This document shows, piece by piece, positions 4,821 to 27,040 of a DNA stretch of 64,000 nucleotides (position 1 is its first letter; each line of letters opens with the position of its first letter). Location of the stretch: assembly GCF_051903065.1 (NCBI RefSeq), contig NZ_CP178440.1, one strand, 5' to 3'. The DNA is from Escherichia coli (lineage in GTDB: Bacteria; Pseudomonadota; Gammaproteobacteria; Enterobacterales; Enterobacteriaceae). The translations under genes and the position numbers were made by a program. The notes under the pieces are model-generated. The model did not search any database. It was not told the DNA's origin and saw only the letters and a program-made list of their open reading frames with translations.

Positions 4821-5782
4821 TAATTACCTATGAGATACATACCGTTAACTAAATCATATTGAGAGTTATTGGTTTTGAAAAAACGTTCATCACGAATCTG
4901 TGTGTGTTTTTTTACTGCATCGCATATTAATTCTGCGCCACCGCCTATAACCATAACATGAGTATAACCAGAAAATTCATTGAGCGTATTTAATACACGT
5001 TGCTCAAGTTTACGAAGTGCGTCATTCATTGCTTCGGTGACTATTGATATTTTGTTCTCATCATTAATTCGTTGCTTCAGATAGTTGTTGTCTTTTCTGT
5101 GAATAATTATATCGTCAGCAAGATAGCTACTTCCTTTTGTTCTCGCAAGAGAAAGTGCATCTTTTACTGCAGATGTGACCAGAGATACACCAAGAGATGA
5201 GTCTCCGTATATTTTACTGATCCCCGATAATTTCCCCATTACCTGAGAAATATCTAATGTGGTGCCCCCGAGATCTATAATTAATAAAGAATCTAACTCA
5301 TCCAGTTCTTGTAGAACTTCATAACCTGCCGGTATAGATTCAGGCATGACTTTTACATCTTTTATTGTGAATGTATCCCCACCATTTAATGTAATTTTTT
5401 TCCGGAAGTTTGCTTTCTTACGCTCAATATTTTCCGTATTGGGTTGGTTATTTCTGTCGTAATACTCTGTCAGAGGAAGTGTGCAAACAATATCCACTTC
5501 GCTTACCGGCAGACCACTGGTCAGTAAGGCGTGGTGCACCGCAACGACATTAACGTCGCTGTATTGCCATGCGATATTGGTTGTGACTACAGCATCCGGG
5601 CTGATTGGATCAAATGAATACTGTTCGCCGTTCAGTGTGTAGTTAAAGACCTTTTTATCACCAAAAGAGACTGCCCACTCGCGTTTGAAGCTGTTCGGGC
5701 TAATGTGCTGTTTAATTGTTCCGTCGTTTTCCTGCCACTGTAGTTTGATGTTTGTTGAACCGTCATCAATGAATACCAACAT
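4820..5782 (-). CDS. parM: Actin-like segregation ATPase ParM (StbA)
   Basis: 320-aa [20 protein letters not shown]... with DLGGTTLD phosphate-binding motif; near-identical to R1 ParM as recalled. Confidence 0.9.
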
Positions 5783-5960
5783 TTATAAAACTCCTTATGG
5801 TGTTTTTTTGGTGTGTGTTTGGGTATGTTTTGGGTTTTAAGTGGGTTTATTTGTCAAGTTTACCCCATTTTAACCATCAATCAATGATTATTTGTCTTGT
5901 TTTGGTGTTTTATTGGGTTGGGTGTGGGTTGTTTTTGGGTTTTGTTTGGCGGGTAACAAA
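5783..5960. promoter_or_regulatory. parC-like centromere/promoter region upstream of parM (GT-rich short direct repeats)
   Basis: Repeated ttttgg / gggtt(t) units on both sides of the presumed promoter, position relative to parM. Confidence 0.5.
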
Positions 5961-6295
5961 AGATGTCGCCGGGCTCCTCTTTTTACTGCGCCGGCTGACG
6001 CGGCGCGGCAGGAACGCTGCCTGTGGTCAGTGTCCCGCGTCCGGCGGGCACGGGACGGGCGCTTTTACCGCTCCCGGCTGGCGTCAGTGACAGTGTACGC
6101 CAGCCAGTCGCCCTTTCTGATGAACGCCCTTCAAGCCGCTTTCGCGGCATAGCCTTGCCGTCAAACAGACGACGGCTGCGGTATTCCACGGTCGGCCTGA
6201 CCCGTTACCGGACGCGGTGAACAGCCCACAGGCAGCGGGGAACGGGCACCACAGGGGTGCCCTCCCGGTGCCCTCTGTAAGAGAAGGAGGCTTTT

Positions 6296-6979
6296 ATGTC
6301 CCGTTTTATCCTGGGTGACTGCGTGCGAGTTATGGCCACGTTTCCGGACAATGCTGTCGATTTCATCCTCACCGACCCGCCGTATCTCGTCGGTTTCCGT
6401 GACCGTTCCGGGCGCACCATTGCCGGTGACGTTAACGATGACTGGCTGCAACCTGCCAGTAATGAGATGTACCGCGTACTCAAAAAAGACGCGCTGATGG
6501 TGAGTTTCTATGGCTGGAACCGTATTGACCGCTTTATGGCAGCCTGGAAACGCGCCGGATTCAGCGTTGTAGGGCATCTCGTCTTCACCAAAAACTACAC
6601 ATCGAAGGCCGCATATGTGGGCTATCGCCACGAATGCGCCTATATCCTGGCAAAAGGCCGTCCACGTCTGCCACAAAACCCGCTGCCGGACGTGCTGGGC
6701 TGGAAATATTCAGGCAACCGCCATCACCCGACGGAAAAGCCTGTTACCAGCCTGCAACCACTGATTGAGAGCTTCACACACCCGAACGCGATTGTGCTGG
6801 ACCCGTTTGCAGGCAGCGGCTCAACCTGCGTCGCCGCCCTTCAGTCCGGACGCCGGTATATCGGTATCGAGCTGCTTGAACAGTATCACCGTGCCGGACA
6901 GCAACGACTGGCCGCCGTGCAACGGGCCATGCAGCAGGGGGCCGCGAATGATAACTGGTTTGAACCGGAGGCTGCGTAA
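6296..6979 (+). CDS. Orphan DNA methyltransferase, beta-class (DPPY motif near N-terminus, FAGSGST AdoMet motif near C-terminus), N6-adenine or N4-cytosine
   Basis: Motif order IV then I read in translation; no adjacent restriction endonuclease gene. Confidence 0.75.
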   Translation: MSRFILGDCVRVMATFPDNAVDFILTDPPYLVGFRDRSGRTIAGDVNDDWLQPASNEMYRVLKKDALMVSFYGWNRIDRFMAAWKRAGFSVVGHLVFTKNYTSKAAYVGYRHECAYILAKGRPRLPQNPLPDVLGWKYSGNRHHPTEKPVTSLQPLIESFTHPNAIVLDPFAGSGSTCVAALQSGRRYIGIELLEQYHRAGQQRLAAVQRAMQQGAANDNWFEPEAA

Positions 6980-7201
6980 ATGAACTATGCCGGACACGAA
7001 AAACTTCGCGCCGACGTGGCGGAGGTGGCCAACACCATGTGTGACCTTCGGGCCAGGCTGAACGATATGGAGCATCGCTGTCGCTTTGATTCCGATGTGC
7101 TTGTTGAACGCCTGACACGCCAGACGCTGTATCGCGCCAATCGCCTGTTTATGGAGGCGTATACCGAAATTCTGGAACTGGATTCCTGCTTCAAAGATTG
7201 A
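6980..7201 (+). CDS. Hypothetical small protein (73 aa), start overlaps methyltransferase stop (taaATG)
   Basis: ORF; translational coupling geometry. Confidence 0.4.
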   Translation: MNYAGHEKLRADVAEVANTMCDLRARLNDMEHRCRFDSDVLVERLTRQTLYRANRLFMEAYTEILELDSCFKD

Positions 7202-7214
7202 GAAGGAGACGAGA

Positions 7215-7649
7215 ATGTACGGAACATGCGAAACGCTCTGCCGGGAGCTGGCAGCGCAGTATCCGGGAGACGCGCCGCTGATGCTGGTTGTCTGGTCCCC
7301 GGAAGAGATCCAGGCCCTCGCTGACGGAATGGATATTTCCCTGTCCGATCATGAAATCAGGACCGTCCTGGCGCGCCTGGAGGACATCCCGGAAGACCAG
7401 CGAATTGAGTCCGGTATTTCTTCCGCCGCGGCGATGGAGATTATCAGCAACGTGAGCGAAAACCGCCAGGTGACCGTTCCGGCTGAACTGCTGGCGTCCC
7501 TGATTCAGACCGCTGAACAGGCATTGTGGAAACGTGAATGGGCCGCCCGGGATCATGGCCTCGCCGTCCCGGAATGCGTCACCCGCCGTCAGGCGGTGGT
7601 TAATCAGGCCCGCACCCTGCTGAAAAACAACACACGCGAAAACGACTGA
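7215..7649 (+). CDS. Hypothetical leading-region protein (144 aa)
   Basis: ORF with RBS gaaggagacgagaATG; conserved-hypothetical of IncF leading regions as far as I recall. Confidence 0.5.
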   Translation: MYGTCETLCRELAAQYPGDAPLMLVVWSPEEIQALADGMDISLSDHEIRTVLARLEDIPEDQRIESGISSAAAMEIISNVSENRQVTVPAELLASLIQTAEQALWKREWAARDHGLAVPECVTRRQAVVNQARTLLKNNTREND

Positions 7650-7693
7650 TGTTATCGCCGCCTGCGGGCGGCGATTCAGGGAGACCATGAATC

Positions 7694-8464
7694 ATGAACG
7701 AAACGCTGAATGCACTGATTTGTCGCCACGCCCGTAACCTGCTGCTGGCGCAGGGCTGGCCGGAAGAGACGGATGTTGACCAGCGAAATCCGAACCATCC
7801 GGGCTGGATCAGCATTTACGTGCGGCTGGATGCGCCCCGGCTGGCGACATTACTCGTTAACCGCCACGATGGCGTGCTGCCGCCGCACCTGGCCTCCGCC
7901 ATTCAGAAACTGACCGGAACCGGGGCGGAGCTGGTACTGTCCGGCAGTCAGTGGCAGTCGCTGCCGGTACTTCCGGCAGACGGAACGCAGGTGTCTTTCC
8001 CGTATGCCGGTGAGTGGCTGGCAGAGGACGAAATCAGGGCAGTTCTTGATGCGGTACGCGATGCAGTACGCTGTGTCAGTTACCAGGTGGCAGAAGATAC
8101 GCGGCGTATCCGGGCGGCGCTGACCACAACCGGTCAGACGTTACTGACCCGCCAGACGCGCCGCTTTCGCCTGGTTGTGAAGGAAAGCGATCACCCCTGC
8201 TGGCTCGATGAGGACGACGAAAACCTGCCCGTGGTGCTCGATGCCATCCTGAACCGGGGCGCACGTTTTTCGTCGGTGGAAATGTATCTGGTCAGTGAGT
8301 GTATTGAGCATATCCTGTCCAGTGGGCTGGCCTGCGATGTGCTGCGTATACCGGATGAACCGCCCCGCCGCTGGTTTGACCGTGGTGTTCTGCGGGAGGT
8401 GGTCCGGGAAGCCCGGACCGAAATCCGCAGCATGGCGGATGCCCTGGCAAAAATCCGGAAATGA
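7694..8464 (+). CDS. Hypothetical leading-region protein (256 aa)
   Basis: ORF; no recognised motif. Confidence 0.5.
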
Positions 8465-8879
8465 TGACACTGGCGGGGTAAATCCCCGCCTTTTTCCTGC
8501 CGGTCCCCGGACAGAGCACAAAGGAAGTCGCCGCCGGCTCCGCTTTACCCGGCCATGCAGAGCATGGCCTTGTGGTTTTTCAGTTATGTGGCCTCAGCGT
8601 CGTGTGCGGGCTGTGCCGTGCCTCCATCTTAGCCGGGCTGGCGTTGATGCAAGGGTACGCTTCGCCGCTGCGGTCACCCGGTCCCTCCTTCCCGTCTGCC
8701 GTGATTTTCCGGTCGTTCGCCCGCTCAGGTTTCGCGGCCTCACCCTGCAACTCCCGCCAGCCGTGTGCGTCAGGCTGCGGCTTCCCTTGCGCCCCTGCAT
8801 CCCCGCCTTATCGCCCGGCTTTTATGGAGGCACGGCACCGCCCGGTGTCGCGGAATATGTGAACAACGGAGGAAATCCC

Positions 8880-9305
8880 ATGCAGTATGCGAAACCTGTC
8901 ACTCTGAACGTTGAAGAGTGCGACCGTCTCTCCTTTCTGCCTTACCTGTTTGGCAACGATTTTCTGTATGCCGAGGCGTATGTGTACGCGCTGGCGCAAA
9001 AAATGATGCCGGAATATCAGGGCGGCTTCTGGCACTTCATCCGCCTGCCGGACGGTGGCGGTTACATGATGCCGGATGGCGACCGTTTCCACATGGTGAA
9101 CGGTGCAAACTGGTTTGACCGTACCGTGAGTGCTGATGCCGCAGGCATCATCCTGACCTCCCTTGTGATTAACCGCCAGTTGTGGCTGTACCACGACAGC
9201 GGGGATGCAGGACTGACCCAGCTTTACCGGATGCGCGATGCGCAGTTGTGGCGTCACATCGAATTTCACCCCGAATGCAACGCGATTTACGCGGCTCTGG
9301 ACTGA
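8880..9305 (+). CDS. Antirestriction protein, KlcA/ArdB family
   Basis: 141-aa protein from ATG 8880 (RBS aacggagg); DRLSFLP and [15 protein letters not shown] segments resemble KlcA; the 336-aa ORF-track version is an N-terminal over-extension through GC-rich non-coding DNA. Confidence 0.7.
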
Positions 9306-9962: not shown

Positions 9963-10155
9963 TACAGGGGCAGGCGGTGGAGGCCGCCTGTCAGCCCGCG
10001 CGAAAACCCCTGGCAGGCTGACGCCTGCCGGAAGGGAAGCGGGCCACGCTGGCGCGTCGCCCGTTACCCTTCCCGTCTGTGATGTGTCTGACTCAGGAGT
10101 GTTTCTTTCTTATGTTGCGGAACTGTTCCTGATGTTGTTGTTGTTCCTTTATCTG

Positions 10156-10763
10156 CTGCTCTGATTCTGACTACTGCAGTGTTGTTCTGTCTGCCGGGCG
10201 CACCTTCGGCTCCCGGCTGCCTGGCGGCATCCGGTCGTCAGGCCCGACTCCGACAGGCAGCTGCTGGCGCACCTGCCAGTCTCCGCCGAACCCGCTGGCG
10301 CGGCTTCGGGCTGCCGCTACGGTCCGATGCGTGAAAACCCCGGGCTTGCAGCGACCGTTCCGGTCGCGCCGCCTCTGTCGCGCCGTGGCCTGCGCTCCTG
10401 GCATCCCGGCAAAAGGCCGCCGGGATGTAAGGGGCAACGCCGTTTCGCGCACGCGCTCTCCGTCGTTGCGGCGGGTCCCTGCTCATTGCCTGCCGGGTGC
10501 CACACACCCGTATGAGTCCCTGTCGCCGGGGGCTGATACAGCCACAACCTGCCGCACTGACTGTCCAGGGTAAATGAACAGCCCACAAAATTTTTTACCC
10601 AAAACCCGGTAAAAAATTTTGCGTTCTGCCCAGGACAGGTGCGTCAGGCCGTGGCAGTGATGCCCCTTGCGGCGAAGGTTCTCAAACGGGTGAAGTTCAT
10701 ACCACAGGGAATACAGCAGCAGGTTCCCGCGAAACGTCAAAACCGCGGCTCCCGAAACTCAAC
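10156..10763 (+). promoter_or_regulatory. Frpo/ssi-like structured repeat, copy A (candidate single-strand promoter / priming element)
   Basis: About 608 bp sharing long identical blocks with copies B and C; contains a 14-bp perfect inverted repeat at 10585-10598 / 10608-10621; ORFs called inside on both strands are artefacts. Confidence 0.65.
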
Positions 10764-11003
10764 GGGTGATGTTCTTTAAAAATCAGGATTTATTTCAGGC
10801 TCCGGCAATACGCATTTATTTGTTCTGTCAGTCATCCGGCTGGCAGGTAATGAGAACGCAGGAACAGAAGGAGGAAAACACCGTAGAACGTCAGACGCAG
10901 ATATGAAAAAAGCAGGTCAGGGACCTGCTTAATCCACGCCGTAAGAATTGCGCAACCAATTTTGACGGCATTGTTAACCAATTTGTCATAAGGAGTTTCA
11001 TTT

Positions 11004-11234
11004 ATGACAGTAAGTATTGTTTCACCTTCCGCAGCGGCTGTAAAGCCCCGCCGTCATCCCCGTTTCAGACGCGAAGACATCCCCGCGCCGGAAATTGACC
11101 CCGTGCTGAAAGCCTTCGGGCGACACATTGCCCGGAGTTTTCACCGGGGGCGTGGTGTACACATCCCCGCCATGAAAAACACGGCCTTCGGGCAGGTGCT
11201 CCGCACACTCGAACTGAAACGCGCTTTTAACTGA
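11004..11234 (+). CDS. Hypothetical small basic protein (76 aa) first gene after repeat copy A
   Basis: ORF with RBS aaggag 9 nt upstream of ATG. Confidence 0.4.
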   Translation: MTVSIVSPSAAAVKPRRHPRFRREDIPAPEIDPVLKAFGRHIARSFHRGRGVHIPAMKNTAFGQVLRTLELKRAFN

Positions 11235-13258: not shown

Positions 13259-13464
13259 AGACGCCGGGCAGGCGGGAGGATAAATGCCCGTCTGCCCGCG
13301 CCGGGAAAAGACCGCGCGCCGGTGGCGCTGAAAGGGGCCGCGCTCACGCGCCGCCCCTTTCATTACGCGGACGTTCTGATGGGGGCTTCTGTTTCTTCAT
13401 GCCTGTCATTTGTCTGTTACTGATGTTGTTGTTCCTGCTACTGCTACTGTTCTTCTTTTTCCTG

Positions 13465-14074
13465 CTGCTCTGATTCTGACTACTGCAGTGTTGTCCCGTC
13501 TGCCGGGCGCACCTTCGGCTCCCGGCTGCCTGGCGGCATCCGGTCGTCAGGCCCGACTCCGACAGGCAGCTGCTGGCGCACCTGCCAGTCTCCGCCGAAC
13601 CCGCTGGCGCGGTTTCGGGCTGTCGCTACGGTCCGATGCGTGAAAACCCCGGGCTTGCAGCGACCGTTCCGGTCGCGCCGCCTCTGTCGCGCCGTGGCCT
13701 GCGCTCCTGGCATCCCGGCAAAAGGCCGCCGGGATGTAAGGCGCAACGCCGTTTCGCAAACCGCGCTTCACGTCGTTGCGGCGGGTCCCTGCCCGTTGTT
13801 GTGTCCGGTGCCATTCACCTGTTTAAGCCCCTGTCGCCGGGGGCATAGACAGCCACAACCGTCTCCGCCAGTCCAGGGGTGAAATGCACATCCCGCAAAA
13901 CTTTTTGCCCGGAAGCAGGCAAAAACTTTTGCGGTCTGCCCCCGGACAGTCGTTTCCGGCCGTGGCAGTGATGCCCCTTGCGGCGAAGGTTCTCAAACAG
14001 GTGATGGTGAATACCGGAGGGAACAAAGAGCAGGTCCCCGCAAAACGTCAAAACCGCGGCTCCCGAAACTCAAC
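13465..14074 (+). promoter_or_regulatory. Frpo/ssi-like structured repeat, copy B, immediately upstream of ssb
   Basis: 610 bp, nearly identical to copy C (a few mismatches), more diverged from copy A; inverted repeat cgcaaaactttttgcc / ggcaaaaacttttgcg. Confidence 0.65.
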
Positions 14075-15591: not shown

Positions 15592-16411
15592 GGCACTGTT
15601 GCAAATAGTCGGTGGTGATAAACTTATCATCCCCTTTTGCTGATGGAGCTGCACATGAACCCATTCAAAGGCCGGCATTTTCAGCGTGACATCATTCTGT
15701 GGGCCGTACGCTGGTACTGCAAATACGGCATCAGTTACCGTGAGCTGCAGGAGATGCTGGCTGAACGCGGAGTGAATGTCGATCACTCCACGATTTACCG
15801 CTGGGTTCAGCGTTATGCGCCTGAAATGGAAAAACGGCTGCGCTGGTACTGGCGTAACCCTTCCGATCTTTGCCCGTGGCACATGGATGAAACCTACGTG
15901 AAGGTCAATGGCCGCTGGGCGTATCTGTACCGGGCCGTCGACAGCCGGGGCCGCACTGTCGATTTTTATCTCTCCTCCCGTCGTAACAGCAAAGCTGCAT
16001 ACCGGTTTCTGGGTAAAATCCTCAACAACGTGAAGAAGTGGCAGATCCCGCGATTCATCAACACGGATAAAGCGCCCGCCTATGGTCGCGCGCTTGCTCT
16101 GCTCAAACGCGAAGGCCGGTGCCCGTCTGACGTTGAACACCGACAGATTAAGTACCGGAACAACGTGATTGAATGCGATCATGGCAAACTGAAACGGATA
16201 ATCAACGCCACGCTGGGATTTAAATCCATGAAGACGGCTTACGCCACCATCAAAGGTATTGAGGTGATGCGTGCACTACGCAAAGGCCAGGCCTCAGCAT
16301 TTTATTATGGTGATCCCCTGGGCGAAATGCGCCTGGTAAGCAGAGTTTTTGAAATGTAAGGCCTTTGAATAAGACAAAAGGCTGCCTCATCGCTAACTTT
16401 GCAACAGTGCC
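15592..16411 (+). mobile_element. IS26 copy 2 (820 bp)
   Basis: Exact 14-bp terminal inverted repeats; flanking 8-mers gaccgcat and ttgtgaac. Confidence 0.95.
15655..16359 (+). CDS. tnpA: IS26 transposase
   Basis: Identical translation to the other copies. Confidence 0.95.
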   Translation: MNPFKGRHFQRDIILWAVRWYCKYGISYRELQEMLAERGVNVDHSTIYRWVQRYAPEMEKRLRWYWRNPSDLCPWHMDETYVKVNGRWAYLYRAVDSRGRTVDFYLSSRRNSKAAYRFLGKILNNVKKWQIPRFINTDKAPAYGRALALLKREGRCPSDVEHRQIKYRNNVIECDHGKLKRIINATLGFKSMKTAYATIKGIEVMRALRKGQASAFYYGDPLGEMRLVSRVFEM

Positions 16412-16907
16412 TTGTGAACCTTATTGATGATCGTACCGATGATATTTTGTATGGAAGGCCATGGTACAAAAAATGGACGATGGGGAGAATGATCTCATTT
16501 AACACATCTTCGCCTTACGCCAATGCTAATGGAAGATTAAGAAAGTGGGCAAAAAATAATAATATCAGTTTAAAGTAAGCATCAGAATGAAATTATATGG
16601 ACGAAAAATTTCTCTATTAACTGCACCATGGCTGGTAAAATCTCTTACCCTTGATGAAAATACAGGTTCCGTTACTGTTACGGTCGGAATCGCTGAAAAT
16701 ACCTATAACCATCGTAAATGGTTCCACTTTGATACCTGCCTGTTCATTACCCAGTGCGCCGTAAAGCCCCGTCCTTCAGGGCGTGGAGGATGTCAAATTA
16801 GTAGAAGCCGATGCTGGGAGCAATGTTCCACTACGGGAAGCTGAATATGGCGTTCTGAGCCTTCCTACAATTATCGGGGAAGCCCCATCTGCGTACTCCG
16901 GATTTTT

Positions 16908-17035
16908 GTTTATATGATCATGGGATTATATGATTATATCATTTTGTAACTATTTGATTATGTAATTTTATGATTGCATAATTTTATGAATATGAGATTA
17001 TTTGAATACTTGGCAGAGGTACTATTTGAACAAAG
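16908..17035. promoter_or_regulatory. Array of about 7 degenerate AT-rich direct repeats (TT(A/T)TGA(T/A)T) upstream of parA; candidate centromere/operator
   Basis: ttatatgatca, ttatatgattat, tttgattatgt, ttttatgattg, ttttatgaata, ttatttgaata, tatttgaaca read at roughly 11-12 bp spacing. Confidence 0.5.
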
Positions 17036-17046
17036 GGGAGAGGTGA

Positions 17047-17670
17047 ATGCCTAACGTGATAGCATTTTTAAATGGTAAGGGGGGGGTGTCTAAGACAACC
17101 TCGGCAGTTAATATTGCTACTGCTCTTGCTCGTAAGGGTTACAAAGTTGTTGTTGTGGATACCGATCCCCAGGGAAGTGTTAGTAACTGGTATGATGACA
17201 GTAAGTGTGTTTTTGATGTAGCGGAAGCTACGGCAGAAAAAGAAATTTACCGTTTGCGGAAGGCGCTTCCTTTGCACGATTTTATCATTATTGATGGTGC
17301 TGCTGCGATTTCGGCGATATCGGCGGCTGCTGTTATGGTTTCTGATCTTGTTATTATTCCAGTTACTCCTTCGCCGCTTGATTTTGCTGCGTGTGGCGCG
17401 ATATTGGCAGTGATAGAAGCTCGTCAGGATTTACGCCCGGTGATTGCTCGCTTTTTGATTACTAAAAAAGTACAGCAAACGCATATGTTATCTTTGCTGA
17501 AAGAATCTATTGCAGAAACAAGCATACCAGCATTAAAAACAGGAACGTCGTACAGGCAGTCATATATAAGATCTATGCTGGATGGTGGTACTATATTTGA
17601 TACAAAAGATAGTGCTGCTAAAGGTGAAATATCAGTTATTACAGAAGAAATACTTGGACTATTAAAATGA
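17047..17670 (+). CDS. ParA-family partition ATPase (small, type Ib-like)
   Basis: Deviant Walker [11 protein letters not shown] at N-terminus, 207 aa. Confidence 0.85.
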
Positions 17671-17873
17671 GTAAAATGAAACTTGGGAATCATAAGGCAA
17701 CAAACACTGCTCTGGATGCACTGAAGAAACCTGCGGGAGCAACCAGAAAGTTACAAATGAATATTCCAGAAGAGTTACATCTTGCATTTAAATTAGCTTG
17801 TGTGGAAGATGGCATTGATATGACACAGGTAAATATAGAACTCATTCAAAACTGGTTAAAGAGTCGTAACTGA
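17667..17873 (+). CDS. Small partition partner protein (ParG-like, probable ribbon-helix-helix centromere binder)
   Basis: 68-aa ORF overlapping parA stop; basic N-terminal tail then short structured domain. Confidence 0.5.
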
Positions 17874-18182
17874 TAGTGTTTCAGCCAGTCGTAATCTGCG
17901 ACGCAAACAAAAAGCGCTGTCCCGCAAGCTCAATGCGGCACTCAACATCCGGCAAAAAGGAATACAGGAACTACAGGCGACGGGACTCGTCGTCACTGCC
18001 CATGGAGACCAGCGTAAATCCGTCGTACAGAAGAGGATAAAATGGGAGAGCAGTTATCGATTCCCTATCCGGGCAGCCCGTTTACGGGCCGTAAGTAACG
18101 AAGTTGGATGCAAATGTCAGATCGTGTGCGCCTGTTAGGGCGCGGCTGGTAAGAGAGCCTTATAGGCGCATTTGAAAAACCT

Positions 18183-18206
18183 CCGGCTATGCCGGAGGAT
18201 ATTTAT
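18183..18206. terminator. Bidirectional rho-independent terminator hairpin (cctccggc ... gccggagg) flanked by A/T runs
   Basis: Perfect stem with T-run on the minus strand about 80 nt downstream of the adhesin stop. Confidence 0.5.
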
Positions 18207-18284
18207 TTATCGAGTTCGGTGACCGCCTGGACGGTCACTTCTGAGACAAGGCATTTACACAGAATCTTAAACAGGCTCGCTAAT

Positions 18285-19775
18285 TTACCACCCAATGGCA
18301 AAACCAGCTCCTAAGTTTGTATCACCACCATTGTTCCATGATGTGTTGACTCGTATGTTAGCATTCTGGCTCACTTTATATTGAACTCCGGCTGCGATTG
18401 CTTGAGCATCACGATAATGCCCCACGCCCATACCAAATGAAAAGCGCTCATTATTAACATAAGGAATTGATGAAATAGCGGTAACTCCGGCAATACCCGC
18501 ATTAGCACGCTTTTCGACTCTATCTATTTTTTTATTCATTTGTGAGAATCTTTGCTCATTTTTCTGCTGTAAATCATTTAATGTTTTATTGAAGTTTTTA
18601 CCTAATGTATCAACGCTAGATGCAGTATATTTGTTTGCCATTTCTAGAGTGTTTAAATCACCTTGTTCACGGAGTCTTTTCTCTTCATTGATTGCACTTG
18701 TTCTGGCTTTTTTTTCTTCATTTATTCTTGCAACTACTGATTTGCTGGGGTCTTTTTCTATATTTTTAATTTCATCTTCACTCATGCCTATAGCTTTAGT
18801 GACAACATCTAATTGGGACATATTCACAGCATCTGTAGGATTTACGCCCCCGGCAAGATTCGTGATTCTTCTGTTTATCATGGGCTCTGTCGTTGTTGCT
18901 TCCCTTCCTAAAGATACAACACCATTCTTACTATCTGTGTTCTCTACAGCGGTATATTTAGATACAGTATCATCATATTGATTATGCGTTTTCGATCTTG
19001 CCCCAAGAGCAATACTGCCTTTTGAATTAGACTCAGATAAATATCCAATGGAAACAGAATCAGTTTCCTGAGAGGCTGAATATGATCCTAATGCAATACT
19101 ATTTTTACCAATGGAATGAGACTCTAATCCTATGGCAGAACTGCCAGAGCCAATTGATAATGATTGACTACCCAATGCTGTACCAAATTCACCAACCACC
19201 GTCGAAAAGGAACCTACTGCCGTTCCTTCAATATTGTGGGAACTTGATTTATATCCCATTACAGATGACGCATATTGATTCCCATATTTCTCCTTAGCAT
19301 GAGGATCAACAGATGAGTCAACAGAAATATGTCCATCAGCGGATACTGTTATTTTTTTACCACTCACATCTAAGGATGAATTATTTTCAGGCAATTTAGT
19401 TACTGAAGCTTTGTTACCGATTAAAGTTGAATAGTTTCCTTCTGAATCAATTTTCGATCTGGATCCAACTATAGTCGAAAAAGTCCCTGCTTCTGTTGCA
19501 GAATCGTATCCTATTACTACTGATGCTCCTGCTCCTCCTTTTTCTGGTATATTCAAAGACTTAGAATTTGGACCTATTACTACTGAGAAATTTTGTTCTG
19601 ATCTTGTAGCATCACCAATTCCCTTACCAATAGCGATACTGCCAATACCTGAAGATTCTGTATTATCCGCACCAATAGCTATAGATGAGTAGCCTTTAGG
19701 ATTAGCAGCAAAAGAACAAAGGCTAACACCAGATAATGTTAATAGTATAGATGATAAAATTAATTTATTATTCAT
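18285..19775 (-). CDS. Trimeric autotransporter adhesin (YadA-like head repeats, coiled-coil stalk, C-terminal beta-barrel anchor)
   Basis: Signal peptide MNNKLILSSILLTLSGVSLCSFA, repetitive SIAIG/SxGxxS head motifs, heptad-rich stalk, C-terminal anchor ending GAGFAIGW. Confidence 0.8.
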   Translation of the reverse strand: MNNKLILSSILLTLSGVSLCSFAANPKGYSSIAIGADNTESSGIGSIAIGKGIGDATRSEQNFSVVIGPNSKSLNIPEKGGAGASVVIGYDSATEAGTFSTIVGSRSKIDSEGNYSTLIGNKASVTKLPENNSSLDVSGKKITVSADGHISVDSSVDPHAKEKYGNQYASSVMGYKSSSHNIEGTAVGSFSTVVGEFGTALGSQSLSIGSGSSAIGLESHSIGKNSIALGSYSASQETDSVSIGYLSESNSKGSIALGARSKTHNQYDDTVSKYTAVENTDSKNGVVSLGREATTTEPMINRRITNLAGGVNPTDAVNMSQLDVVTKAIGMSEDEIKNIEKDPSKSVVARINEEKKARTSAINEEKRLREQGDLNTLEMANKYTASSVDTLGKNFNKTLNDLQQKNEQRFSQMNKKIDRVEKRANAGIAGVTAISSIPYVNNERFSFGMGVGHYRDAQAIAAGVQYKVSQNANIRVNTSWNNGGDTNLGAGFAIGW

Positions 19776-19921
19776 AGCAACATATCCCACCAAAGTAGAT
19801 AGATTATCGTTATTCCTCGATAAATAAATTGCAATGTAAGATACATTAATCTTAACAATGTGTTAACATAAGAGGCTGTTAACACATTTAGTTTATAACA
19901 TAAAACATCATAAATATTAAG

Positions 19922-20741
19922 GGCACTGTTGCAAATAGTCGGTGGTGATAAACTTATCATCCCCTTTTGCTGATGGAGCTGCACATGAACCCATTCAAAG
20001 GCCGGCATTTTCAGCGTGACATCATTCTGTGGGCCGTACGCTGGTACTGCAAATACGGCATCAGTTACCGTGAGCTGCAGGAGATGCTGGCTGAACGCGG
20101 AGTGAATGTCGATCACTCCACGATTTACCGCTGGGTTCAGCGTTATGCGCCTGAAATGGAAAAACGGCTGCGCTGGTACTGGCGTAACCCTTCCGATCTT
20201 TGCCCGTGGCACATGGATGAAACCTACGTGAAGGTCAATGGCCGCTGGGCGTATCTGTACCGGGCCGTCGACAGCCGGGGCCGCACTGTCGATTTTTATC
20301 TCTCCTCCCGTCGTAACAGCAAAGCTGCATACCGGTTTCTGGGTAAAATCCTCAACAACGTGAAGAAGTGGCAGATCCCGCGATTCATCAACACGGATAA
20401 AGCGCCCGCCTATGGTCGCGCGCTTGCTCTGCTCAAACGCGAAGGCCGGTGCCCGTCTGACGTTGAACACCGACAGATTAAGTACCGGAACAACGTGATT
20501 GAATGCGATCATGGCAAACTGAAACGGATAATCAACGCCACGCTGGGATTTAAATCCATGAAGACGGCTTACGCCACCATCAAAGGTATTGAGGTGATGC
20601 GTGCACTACGCAAAGGCCAGGCCTCAGCATTTTATTATGGTGATCCCCTGGGCGAAATGCGCCTGGTAAGCAGAGTTTTTGAAATGTAAGGCCTTTGAAT
20701 AAGACAAAAGGCTGCCTCATCGCTAACTTTGCAACAGTGCC
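19922..20741 (+). mobile_element. IS26 copy 3 (820 bp), same orientation as copy 2
   Basis: Exact terminal inverted repeats; flanking 8-mers atattaag and accggaag. Confidence 0.95.
19985..20689 (+). CDS. tnpA: IS26 transposase
   Basis: Identical translation to the other copies. Confidence 0.95.
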   Translation: MNPFKGRHFQRDIILWAVRWYCKYGISYRELQEMLAERGVNVDHSTIYRWVQRYAPEMEKRLRWYWRNPSDLCPWHMDETYVKVNGRWAYLYRAVDSRGRTVDFYLSSRRNSKAAYRFLGKILNNVKKWQIPRFINTDKAPAYGRALALLKREGRCPSDVEHRQIKYRNNVIECDHGKLKRIINATLGFKSMKTAYATIKGIEVMRALRKGQASAFYYGDPLGEMRLVSRVFEM

Positions 20742-23672: not shown

Positions 23673-23943
23673 CAACCTGGAGGCGGGCGCAGGCCCGCCT
23701 TTTCAGGACTGATGCTGGTCTGACTACTGAAGCGCCTTTATAAAGGGGCTGCTGGTTCGCCGGTAGCCCCTTTCTCCTTGCTGATGTTGTACGGGCATGA
23801 ACAACCTGACTTCAGGAAGGTCGTTTCCCTTCAGGAACGGGGATGAACGCGCGCCTGCGGCGCCCGTTCTTTTCCCCCGCCTTCTCTGGTTATGGCCTGT
23901 CAAAAATCACATCACCTTCCCTGTGATTATTCTCTTTTTCTTC

Positions 23944-24553
23944 CTGCTCTGATTCTGACTACTGCAGTGTTGTCCTGTCTGCCGGGCGCACCTTCGGCTC
24001 CCGGCTGCCTGGCGGCATCCGGTCGTCAGGCCCGACTCCGACTGGCAGCTGCTGGCGCACCTGCCAGTCTCCGCCGAACCCGCTGGCGCGGTTTCGGGCT
24101 GTCGCTACGGTCCGATGCGTGAAAACCCCGGGCTTGCAGCGACCGTTCCGGTCGCGCCGCCTCTGTCGCGCCGTGGCCTGCGCTCCTGGCATCCCGGCAA
24201 AAGGCCGCCGGGATGTAAGGCGCAACGCCGTTTCGCAAACCGCGCTTCACGTCGTTGCGGCGGGTCCCTGCCCGTTGTTGTGTCCGGTGCCATTCACCTG
24301 TTTAAGCCCCTGTCGCCGGGGGCATAGACAGCCACAACCGTCTCCGCCAGTCCAGGGGTGAAATGCACATCCCGCAAAACTTTTTGCCCGGAAGCAGGCA
24401 AAAACTTTTGCGGTCTGCCCCCGGACAGTCGTTTCCGGCCGTGGCAGTGATGCCCCTTGCGGCGAAGGTTCTCAAACAGGTGATGGTGAATACCGGAGGG
24501 AACAAAGAGCAGGTCCCCGCAAAACGTCAAAACCGCGGCTCCCGAAACTCAAC
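23944..24553 (+). promoter_or_regulatory. Frpo/ssi-like structured repeat, copy C
   Basis: 610 bp nearly identical to copy B (offset 10479 bp); followed by an RBS and an ORF. Confidence 0.65.
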
Positions 24554-24998: not shown

Positions 24999-25820
24999 AT
25001 GCGATTAGCTTCCCGTTTTGGTCGGTATAATTCCATCCGCCGTGAACGTCCTTTAACGGATGATGAATTAATGCAGTTCGTGCCTTCGGTATTTTCCGGT
25101 GATAAACATGAGTCCCGGAGTGAACGTTATACGTATATTCCAACAATCAATATCATCAATAAGTTACGTGATGAAGGTTTCCAGCCATTCTTTGCCTGTC
25201 AGAGTCGGGTTCGTGATTTGGGACGTCGCGAATACAGTAAACATATGTTACGTCTTCGCAGGGAAGGGCATATTAACGGGCAGGAAGTTCCTGAAATTAT
25301 CCTGCTTAATTCACATGATGGTTCATCCAGTTATCAGATGATCCCCGGAATTTTTCGTTTTGTCTGCACAAATGGCCTGGTGTGCGGAAATAATTTTGGC
25401 GAAATCCGCGTTCCACATAAAGGTGATATTGTCGGGCAGGTTATCGAGGGAGCGTATGAAGTGCTCGGTGTCTTTGATAAGGTCACTGATAATATGGAGG
25501 CGATGAAAGAAATTCATCTTAACAGTGACGAGCAACATTTATTTGGCAGAGCTGCACTGATGGTCAGGTATGAAGATGAAAATAAAACGCCAGTGACACC
25601 TGAACAGATAATTACTCCCCGTCGTCGGGAAGACAAACAGAACGATCTCTGGACAACCTGGCAGCGGGTTCAGGAGAATATGATAAAAGGTGGATTATCG
25701 GGGCGAAGTGCCTCCGGGAAAAATACCAGGACAAGAGCCATTACAGGTATTGATGGTGATATAAGAATCAACAAGGCGTTATGGGTGATTGCCGAACAGT
25801 TCAGAAAGTGGAAGTCATGA
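24999..25820 (+). CDS. Hypothetical leading-region protein (273 aa)
   Basis: ORF with RBS aaaggag; conserved near oriT in F-like plasmids as far as I recall. Confidence 0.55.
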   Translation: MRLASRFGRYNSIRRERPLTDDELMQFVPSVFSGDKHESRSERYTYIPTINIINKLRDEGFQPFFACQSRVRDLGRREYSKHMLRLRREGHINGQEVPEIILLNSHDGSSSYQMIPGIFRFVCTNGLVCGNNFGEIRVPHKGDIVGQVIEGAYEVLGVFDKVTDNMEAMKEIHLNSDEQHLFGRAALMVRYEDENKTPVTPEQIITPRRREDKQNDLWTTWQRVQENMIKGGLSGRSASGKNTRTRAITGIDGDIRINKALWVIAEQFRKWKS

Positions 25821-25830
25821 TAATATAAGT

Positions 25831-25858
25831 AAAGCCCCGAAAAAATTTTCGGGGCTTT
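25831..25858. terminator. Rho-independent terminator hairpin aagccccgaaaa / ttttcggggctt
   Basis: Perfect 12-bp stem directly after the 24999-25820 gene stop. Confidence 0.6.
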
Positions 25859-26116
25859 ACTTATATTATCATTTTTCGGCATTGCTGTGTCGTCTGATAT
25901 ACCTCAATTTCATCAACCGGCTTTCCGGTTGTCTGTAAATATTGTGCCCGCGAAAAATGGTCTGGCAGGAGGCTGCGCAGTTACCGGGTATATATAAGAT
26001 GGGTTCCCGCTTCGCGGGGCTTCGGCCAGTCAGTATTGTCACTCATATGATATTTTTGTGTGTGGCCTTCCATGCCGCTTTTGCGGCATAACCGGTATCT
26101 GACAATGTCTGTAAGA

Positions 26117-26626: not shown

Positions 26627-27040
26627 TTTTCCACCTCTGGTGACTTTATCCGTAAATAATTTAACCCACTCCACAAAAAGGCTCAACAGGTTGGTGGTTC
26701 TCACCACCAAAAGCACCACACCCCACGCAAAAACAAGTTTTTGCTGATTTGCTTTTTGAATCATTAGCTTATGTTTTAAATAATGTATTTTAATTTATTT
26801 TACATTATTAAATAGGGGCGTTGACGACCCTATGGCGACCCTATGGCGACCCTTGTTAGGGTCAGTACTGACAAATTTTATGAAAAACATTTGGATATAT
26901 TAGGGCCGCCCCTAGCAGCGCCGTGCGTTTTTTTATAGTATGCCCCTAGGGGCGCTGCTAGGGGTGCTCTTCTTTTTTCAGACCAAACTATGAGTAAATG
27001 AAATAAAACACTTGTTTCAGAATATAAAAGGTACTGTCTT
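26627..27040. other. Origin of transfer (oriT) region between gene X and traM, with direct repeats cgaccctatgg x2 and inverted repeats (ctagcagcgcc / ggcgctgctag)
   Basis: Position, nic 22-mer, repeat architecture typical of relaxosome accessory-protein binding sites. Confidence 0.8.
26710..26731 (-). other. oriT nic region, minus-strand 5'-tttgcgtggggtgt/ggtgcttt-3'; predicted nick between 26718 and 26717
   Basis: Exact match to the F TraI ssDNA recognition 22-mer as I recall it; the 5' end at the nick leads into the leading region. Confidence 0.7.

Follow-up and report, generated by a model that had tools for sequence, protein, structure and literature searches.

This locus raises the question of what function resides in the 415 nt (positions 8465-8879) that separate the stop codon of a 256-aa yffB-like open reading frame (7694-8464) from the klcA ATG at 8880, in the 64,000-nt stretch of DNA analyzed here (the window). 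The initial annotation had pointed to a GC-rich gap ahead of klcA; this gap was real, with a GC content of 0.64 (0.66 in 8551-8850), only modestly above the 0.54-0.62 of the flanking genes. The window belongs to an F-like conjugative plasmid, and the gap lies in its leading region (IncF). Used as a query, the 415-nt gap matched at 100% a plasmid of Salmonella enterica (NZ_CP082958; IncFIA, MOBF), and in a gap-identical (100%) record the adjoining anti-restriction gene bears the protein accession of pESBL, WP_001198928.1.

The orientation of the locus was read from the nick site, and Rfam analysis also revealed the traJ 5' UTR and FinP at 27.5 kb, as well as sok and CopA, in the window. The nick site and the elements bordering the gap are as follows:

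26710-26723, minus strand: F-type nick-site sequence GGGTGTGGTGCTTT (exact match)
About 8472-8497, plus strand: intrinsic terminator ending the yffB-like operon upstream, GGCGGGGTAAATCCCCGCC with a T run after it (terminator scan and sequence)
8868-9305, plus strand: Shine-Dalgarno sequence GGAGG (8868-8872) and klcA/ardB-type anti-restriction gene (8880-9305)

Since the nick sequence is on the minus strand, the minus strand is the transferred strand and the leading region lies at lower coordinates. With its 5' end first, the transferred strand enters the recipient in the direction of lower coordinates. It serves as template for the plus-strand genes of the leading region, namely a methyltransferase (6296), klcA (8880), DUF3560, a second methyltransferase, ssb, and DUF932. 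The Shine-Dalgarno sequence is located 8 nt ahead of the klcA ATG, and a scan of 5700-9000 for consensus sigma-70 double-strand promoters revealed none. In the minimum-energy fold, the complement of the klcA Shine-Dalgarno region (8867-8875) pairs, with a probability of about 0.5, with TTTCCTGCCG at 8493-8502, just past the upstream terminator; in RNA that reads through, this segment would be an anti-Shine-Dalgarno, and the klcA-upstream copies of F and pESBL have it as well. Elsewhere in the leading region, a unit at 15592-20689 is inserted between ssb and psiB. It is bounded by two directly oriented, identical copies of an IS26-type transposase gene (15637-16359 and 19967-20689, with identical ends of 79 nt), which enclose a ParA-like ATPase and a trimeric autotransporter adhesin of the YadA type.

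Six operons were reported to be induced in early transconjugants of the IncI1 plasmid pESBL by Wen et al. (NAR, December 2025, PMC12672017), who searched the transferred strand for hairpins and located six start sites in transconjugants by 5' RACE; as presented there, these start sites agree with the in-silico hairpin-promoter predictions. Their class 1 comprises Frpo/ssi1-3, class 2 lies upstream of klcA and ardA, class 3 lies upstream of M.EcoGIX, and classes 2 and 3 are described as conserved in F. In a January 2026 preprint (bioRxiv 10.64898/2026.01.09.698686), the F elements were named ssp1a, ssp1b, ssp2, and ssp3. According to this preprint, complementary-strand synthesis stalls, independently of transcription, at the stem foot of ssp2, which precedes the ArdB homologue yfgB, and ssp2 aids transfer into restriction-bearing hosts; the stall is resolved by UvrD and the delay roughly doubles PsiB expression, while ssp3 is equally strong, without roadblock activity. 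Activity restricted to single-stranded DNA was reported for both the F and the pESBL copies (PMC12672017; 10.64898/2026.01.09.698686).

Comparison with the pESBL-EA11 and F regions showed that the gap is 97.6% identical to the klcA-upstream region of pESBL over 411 nt, 96.0% identical to its ardA-upstream region over 354 nt, and 95.6% identical to the yfgB-upstream region of F over 406 nt. The mapping primers of the preprint are located at 8084 and 8176 of the F locus, just left of the homologous F gap, and one of them matches the window exactly at 8206. As in the pESBL klcA and F ssp2 copies, the element follows a yffB-like gene and precedes a klcA/ardB-type gene, and it shares with class 2 of pESBL (klcA and ardA) and ssp2 of F an identity of 95.6-97.6%, the same strand logic, and a long hairpin with rebuilt -35 and -10 boxes. 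It differs from these copies by about 10-18 substitutions and a few 1-nt indels.

The structure of the element was analyzed on the transferred strand, and the following features were assigned to it:

8598-8852, minus strand: main hairpin of the class 2 (ssp2-type) single-strand promoter (inverted repeat, folds, and covariation)
8647-8652, minus strand: -35-like hexamer TTGCAT on the 3' (non-template) arm; its partner on the template arm is ATGCAG (8795-8800, minus strand)
8626-8631, minus strand: -10-like hexamer TAAGAT on the non-template arm
8832, plus strand: A predicted as the transcription start, 7 nt downstream of the -10 position (from geometry)
8551-8577, plus strand: small hairpin, GGCCATGCAGAGCATGGCC then TTGTGGTTTT, terminator-like on the plus strand

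The basal stem of the main hairpin is formed by a 32-nt inverted repeat, in which 8607-8638 pairs with 8813-8844 at 88% complementarity and encloses 174 nt. The initial annotation had proposed that secondary structure be predicted on the transferred strand; folded as DNA, the minus strand of 8465-8879 reached -107 kcal/mol (z -4.96), and none of 100 shuffled sequences was as stable. The best 300-nt window of the gap reached -84.7 kcal/mol, which is beyond the -75 kcal/mol threshold of the screen by Wen et al. (PMC12672017), although the window size of that screen may differ. In a 300-nt sliding scan of the transferred strand from 1 to 28000, this gap and a second one at about 5958-6295 were within the top nine structure-prone segments after GC correction, which included the three Frpo-like hairpins, a terminator palindrome near 25.8 kb, the class 3 element of the second gap (see below), oriT, and the class 2 element. 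The palindrome, a perfect 26-bp inverted repeat at 25817-25875 directly after the DUF932 gene, looks like a bidirectional terminator, and the 306-nt segment has a z of -10.

Because transcription of klcA must exit the hairpin along its 5' arm, the 3' arm is the non-template strand. Read from the loop to the base, this arm carries TTGCAT (8652-8647), 15 nt, and TAAGAT (8631-8626); the two arms differ in spacer length (15 and 19 nt). All bases of the -35 hexamer are paired, and it matches the consensus at only three of six positions. The three central bases of the -10 hexamer (8628-8630) face AAA (8821-8823) and form a 3-nt mismatch bubble, and about 20 more base pairs follow downstream of the -10 box. 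The predicted start at A8832 would leave a leader of about 48 nt to the klcA ATG. We infer the placement of both boxes and of the start site from the geometry of the hairpin.

Diverged copies of the element were found via KlcA homologues of 65-80% identity in Citrobacter, Edwardsiella, Klebsiella, Salmonella, E. coli, and one metagenome. All traced loci of these homologues keep an upstream gap of 400-520 nt, homologous to that of the window at 66-87% identity. A comparative alignment had also been proposed by the initial annotation, and in an alignment of 12 sequences on the transferred strand, the consensus hairpin had 66 pairs, with 96.3% of cells paired and compensatory changes in 26 of the 66 pairs, values reached by none of 500 shuffles. 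When the partners were slid by 1-3 columns as controls, the paired fraction fell to 34-40% and the compensatory pairs to 2-7. The promoter boxes were conserved in the same alignment: the -10 variants TAAGAT, TACAAT, TACGAT, and TAAAGT follow the pattern TA[AC][AG][AG]T with an invariant TA...T, always 15 nt from T[TG]G[CTA]AT, and the -35 variants TTGTAT, TGGTAT, and TGGAAT are accompanied by compensatory changes on the opposite arm. The 3-nt bubble of the -10 box was kept in all 12 copies with differing bases, and the adjacent A-T pair is replaced by G-C in four of them.

Since Watson-Crick covariation fits either DNA strand or RNA, only the wobble bias separates these possibilities. G.T pairs exceeded C.A mismatches by 17 to 5, which, as counts that are not phylogenetically independent, favors a fold of the transferred strand over one of the plus strand or its RNA. 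In the diverged copies the stem sequence of the small hairpin at 8551-8577 varies, and by eye pairing is still possible, as for GGCCATGAC...GTCATGGCC in the locus designated L017. In some of the diverged plasmids, ardA directly follows klcA (L012, 1969-2469; L017, 2014-2029 and 2373-2879), and L017 has a second copy of the flank motif described below ahead of ardA, which suggests that the class 2 module was duplicated or shuffled between klcA and ardA.

Homology, strand, fold, covariation, conserved boxes, and bubble were thus established for the window copy. With its homology, its leading-region position before klcA on the transferred-strand template, its large fold, and its rebuilt -35 and -10 boxes, the segment 8465-8879 is very probably a class 2 single-strand DNA promoter of the ssp2 type, which precedes klcA/ardB and ardA genes in the leading regions of IncF and IncI1 plasmids, and to judge from its sequence it appears to be an ordinary member of this class. 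By analogy, the window copy would be expected to behave as the F and pESBL copies do, its start sites, single-strand dependence, and roadblock being taken from the literature on those copies. About 18 positions differ from F ssp2, including AA for CC at 8644-8645, which gives two stem mismatches absent from F, and the fold is slightly weaker than that of F ssp2 (-107.0 vs. -111.3 kcal/mol); because of these differences, the roadblock strength of the window copy could differ.

Other readings of the gap were weighed against these data. That it encodes protein, whether by extending KlcA at the N terminus or as a small open reading frame, can practically be discounted: ORFs of 49-96 aa and a 336-aa GTG-started ORF do overlap it (the 336-aa and 96-aa ORFs span it), a few database entries extend KlcA upstream, a few plasmid records call a hypothetical protein in the gap, and some pipelines call such ORFs (e.g., 182-221 aa proteins named DUF1472), but the only Pfam match of the 336-aa ORF was Antirestrict at residues 240-336, which is the real KlcA, and Pfam gave no match in the remaining gap ORFs. 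Among the plasmid matches listed, nearly all annotate no feature in the gap; close homologues are separated by 1-nt indels that break any reading frame, the ATG at 8880 has its Shine-Dalgarno sequence 8 nt upstream, and substitutions track base-pairing rather than codon position. The initial annotation, which had seen no credible ORF and had called the 336-aa ORF an artefact, was correct in this respect. It is highly improbable that klcA is controlled by a structured RNA in its 5' leader (riboswitch, attenuator, or translational operator) whose transcription begins at an ordinary double-strand promoter further upstream. The plus strand also folds well (-96 kcal/mol, z -4.12) and the Watson-Crick covariation fits an RNA hairpin equally; against this, the intrinsic terminator (8472-8490) and the terminator-like hairpin (8551-8569) stand between the upstream gene and the main hairpin, no consensus promoter was found in 5700-9000, and Rfam 15 gave no hit in either gap at the gathering score, with only weak sub-threshold hits at a permissive threshold. 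Moreover, the wobble bias favors the minus strand, the one-arm TA...T pattern and the conserved bubble are features of a promoter and not of a leader, and the predicted start lies inside the stem, so that the mRNA would miss one arm. The published starts of the near-identical pESBL copy also match, as presented by Wen et al. (PMC12672017), the in-silico hairpin-promoter predictions.

It is likewise unlikely that the hairpin is mainly a replication signal and not a promoter, acting as a priming site (ssi/primosome assembly) or as a programmed pause site of complementary-strand synthesis. The AAGCGG of the class 2 flank motif, which we take to be common to PriA-type assembly sites, would speak for such a role, as do the reports that Frpo-type transcripts prime DNA synthesis and that F ssp2 stalls the replisome at the stem foot (10.64898/2026.01.09.698686). 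A replication function, however, adds to the promoter role and does not replace it, and the conserved -35/-10 pattern needs a promoter role. In the same preprint, priming was assigned to ssp1 and not to ssp2, deletion of ssp2 lowered transfer into restricting hosts, which the authors credit in part to lost yfgB expression, and ssp3 in place of ssp2 restored transfer against a type II system.

The second gap precedes the first methyltransferase gene and had been described as similar by the initial annotation. It is a real, conserved block at about 5958-6295, and the similarity holds in kind only, the two sequences being unlike except for a 29-nt flank motif at their left edges (82.8% identity, E 0.008 by blastn). 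Its features are as follows:

5959-5982, plus strand: flank motif GATGTCGCCGGGCTCCTCTTTTTA of the second element
5986-6011, plus strand: small hairpin of the second element
6015-6237, minus strand: branched main hairpin of class 3 (ssp3-type; inverted repeat, folds, and covariation)

The class 3 hairpin is located upstream of an N6_N4 DNA methyltransferase gene (6296-6979), and its 30-nt inverted repeat (6015-6044 with 6208-6237) encloses 163 nt. Folded as DNA, the minus strand of 5950-6295 reached -96.8 kcal/mol (z -5.33), and an alignment of eight sequences showed 97.2% paired and compensatory changes in 19 of 90 pairs, values reached by none of 500 shuffles. The gap is 96.7% identical to the M.EcoGIX-upstream region of pESBL and 95.8% identical to its F counterpart. 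With this homology, its site upstream of a methyltransferase, and its large conserved fold, the gap at about 5958-6295 is very probably a class 3 (ssp3) single-strand promoter of the methyltransferase operon. Like the pESBL M.EcoGIX promoter and F ssp3, it has a homologous N6_N4 methyltransferase downstream and a branched hairpin conserved with covariation; unlike them, its left neighbor is the parM promoter side, where F and pESBL have a small hypothetical ORF. A Frpo-like promoter upstream of ecoGIXM had already been assumed by Fomenkov et al. (2020).

A strict scan revealed no good -35/-10 pair on the correct arm of the class 3 hairpin. A guess at its -10 box would be GACACT at 6029-6034 (minus strand), which lies across two internal loops, has no -35, and follows the pattern nAnACT with A2 and T6 invariant in eight copies. 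TACACT/TAAAAT/CATAAT was rejected as the -10 box, as it sits in the loop of a side hairpin, where the geometry cannot supply a template. The best sub-threshold Rfam hit was the Erse small RNA (RF02757, 23.5 bits vs. a gathering score of 138) at 6061-6255 of the class 3 element (minus strand), in the transferred-strand orientation, and a literature search on "Erse" returned nothing relevant; RF02757 might be a distant relative of the single-strand promoters filed as a small RNA. A small hairpin at 26065-26093 of the window (minus strand), TATGCCGCAAAAGCGGCATGGAAGG, resembles the invariant apical hairpin of class 3, TATGCCGCGAAAGCGGCTTGAAGGG (nhmmer E 0.007); it lies on the transferred strand about 620 nt from the nick.

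The three Frpo-like repeats of the window (about 10.4, 13.7, and 24.2 kb) correspond to class 1, with 84-97% identity to the ssb-upstream and ygeA-upstream regions of F. Frpo and ssi1-3 were reportedly described by Masai and Arai in 1997, by Bates et al. in 1999, and as Frpo1 and Frpo2 by Couturier et al. in 2023. The klcA gap had been considered unrelated to these repeats, and indeed blastn (word size 7) gave nothing better than E 0.33 between them, and an nhmmer profile of the 12 class 2 copies matched only itself in the window. Below E 1e-3, both gaps matched only their own class 2 or class 3 counterparts and no Frpo-bearing region of F. Homology among class 2, class 3, and the Frpo-like repeats was therefore rejected, blastn and nhmmer being empty apart from the flank motif. 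Class 2 is like class 1 in being a leading-region hairpin of the transferred strand that mimics a double-strand sigma-70 promoter and in the order of its parts (flank motif, small hairpin, main hairpin); it differs in having no detectable sequence homology in the hairpin, and class 1 hairpins are longer and more nearly perfect. No promoter boxes were found in class 1 by a scan. Class 1 transcripts are described as priming DNA synthesis, in contrast to ssp2, which is a barrier (10.64898/2026.01.09.698686).

The view that the gaps hold structured single-stranded elements distinct from Frpo was thus sound, except that they form two classes and not one; the observation and the interpretation of the initial annotation were right, but the element is already published and the proposal is no longer new. 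Integron attC sites and the hairpin promoters of phage N4 (reviewed by Bikard et al., 2010) likewise need a hairpin of one strand during a single-stranded phase in order to function. They differ from the present elements in using the integrase and the N4 virion RNA polymerase, respectively, and in their unrelated sequences. Other features were noted around the Frpo-like repeats. Ahead of each one lies an additional module of about 220 nt (10117-10335, 13426-13644, and about 23940-24130), composed of a CTG/TTG-rich tract and then a GC-rich segment; its copies are 97% alike and hairpin-prone on the transferred strand, and no match was found in the ssb-upstream region of F. Between the first Frpo-like hairpin and the next ORF, at 10907-11009 (minus strand), Rfam identified AS-pc01 (antisense to pHK01_035) with 90 bits.

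The 29-nt stretch is the only similarity between the two gaps, and it was generalized as the motif GTCGC-N2-16-GCTCC on the plus strand, or GGAGC-N2-16-GCGAC on the transferred strand. The flank motif of the klcA gap and the matches to the generalized motif in the window are:

8521-8546, plus strand: flank motif GAAGTCGCCGCCGGCTCCGCTTTAC of the klcA gap, AAAGCGGAGC-N-GCGACTTCC on the transferred strand, at the left edge of the conserved module (pattern hits)
5965-5977, plus strand: GTCGC-N2-16-GCTCC at the class 3 element
8527-8541, plus strand: GTCGC-N2-16-GCTCC at the class 2 element
10377-10398, plus strand: GTCGC-N2-16-GCTCC at the first class 1 repeat
13686-13707, plus strand: GTCGC-N2-16-GCTCC at the second class 1 repeat
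24165-24186, plus strand: GTCGC-N2-16-GCTCC at the third class 1 repeat

These five matches to the generalized motif in 64 kb, all on the plus strand, compare with a chance expectation of 1.64 for both strands. The motif was found just left of the single-strand promoters in 5 of 5 cases in the window, 4 of 4 in F, and 6 of 6 in pESBL (plus strand); the four plus-strand matches of F are the four regions homologous to known promoters, and the six of pESBL are at intergenic regions compatible with the six reported promoters. The loci, 190 kb in total, gave 28 hits on the plus strand and 5 on the minus strand. GCGGA and CGAC of the class 2 motif do not vary among the 12 copies, and the GGAGC and GCGAC halves are unchanged in copies with hairpin identities as low as 66%. 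Paralogous modules start to be homologous a few bases to the left of the motif, homology with the pESBL ardA-upstream copy begins at the motif, and each of the three classes has a small hairpin, variable in sequence, between motif and main hairpin. In the text of PMC12672017 and 10.64898/2026.01.09.698686, the classes are presented as lacking sequence homology and the flank motif is not mentioned.

Possible partners of the motif were also examined. As an anti-Shine-Dalgarno or a partner of the 5' leader it was rejected, since its duplex energies with the 45 nt before the start codon were no better than those of shuffles (15 elements, RNA or DNA parameters, z -1.4 to +1.5). RNAalifold proposed a basal helix between the motif and bases 5' of the main stem (8850-8853 with 8540-8543; 6239-6243 with 5973-5977), each pair of which is either invariant or differs by C-to-T only, and the minimum-free-energy fold of single sequences pairs these 5' bases elsewhere; this putative short helix is thus unsupported. 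A MAFFT alignment of the flanks of the three classes did not anchor on the motif. We tentatively propose that the three classes share one undescribed module plan, in which the 3' side of the main hairpin carries a variable small hairpin and then GGAGC-N2-16-GCGAC, the motif being either a common functional part or a trace of common origin. As a functional part, it may be a site for the binding or loading of a factor, a junction-forming element, or an insulator.

Taken together with the literature, the class 2 promoter reading implies the following course of events. During conjugation, the minus strand would pass into the recipient with its 5' end, at the nick (about 26.7 kb), in the lead, and the arriving segment 8465-8879 would fold into a hairpin of about 250 nt. 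Its paired stem would rebuild a sigma-70 promoter, with the 3' arm as the non-template strand carrying TTGCAT, 15 nt, and TAAGAT, and with the central -10 bases in a pre-opened 3-nt bubble. RNA polymerase would then start near 8832, leave the stem at its base, and continue on the single strand, so that klcA-operon mRNA would be made ahead of the complementary strand; synthesis of that strand would remove the hairpin and switch the promoter off. In F, this hairpin is reported to stall complementary-strand synthesis at the stem foot as well until it is unwound by UvrD, which prolongs early expression. The class 3 element (about 5958-6295) would act on the same principle for the methyltransferase operon.

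Both elements were present at at least 80% identity (class 3, at least 95%) in at least 5000 plasmid records of E. coli, Klebsiella, Salmonella, and Shigella. The gaps should be labeled in annotations as class 2 (ssp2) and class 3 (ssp3) single-strand promoters instead of being left blank or given hypothetical ORFs. The covariation evidence, the conserved pre-opened -10 bubble, and the flank motif common to all classes may be additions to the published work. With such hairpins, a plasmid can express its anti-restriction and methylase genes within minutes after entering, while it is still single-stranded, and this early expression helps resistance plasmids cross between strains with restriction systems.
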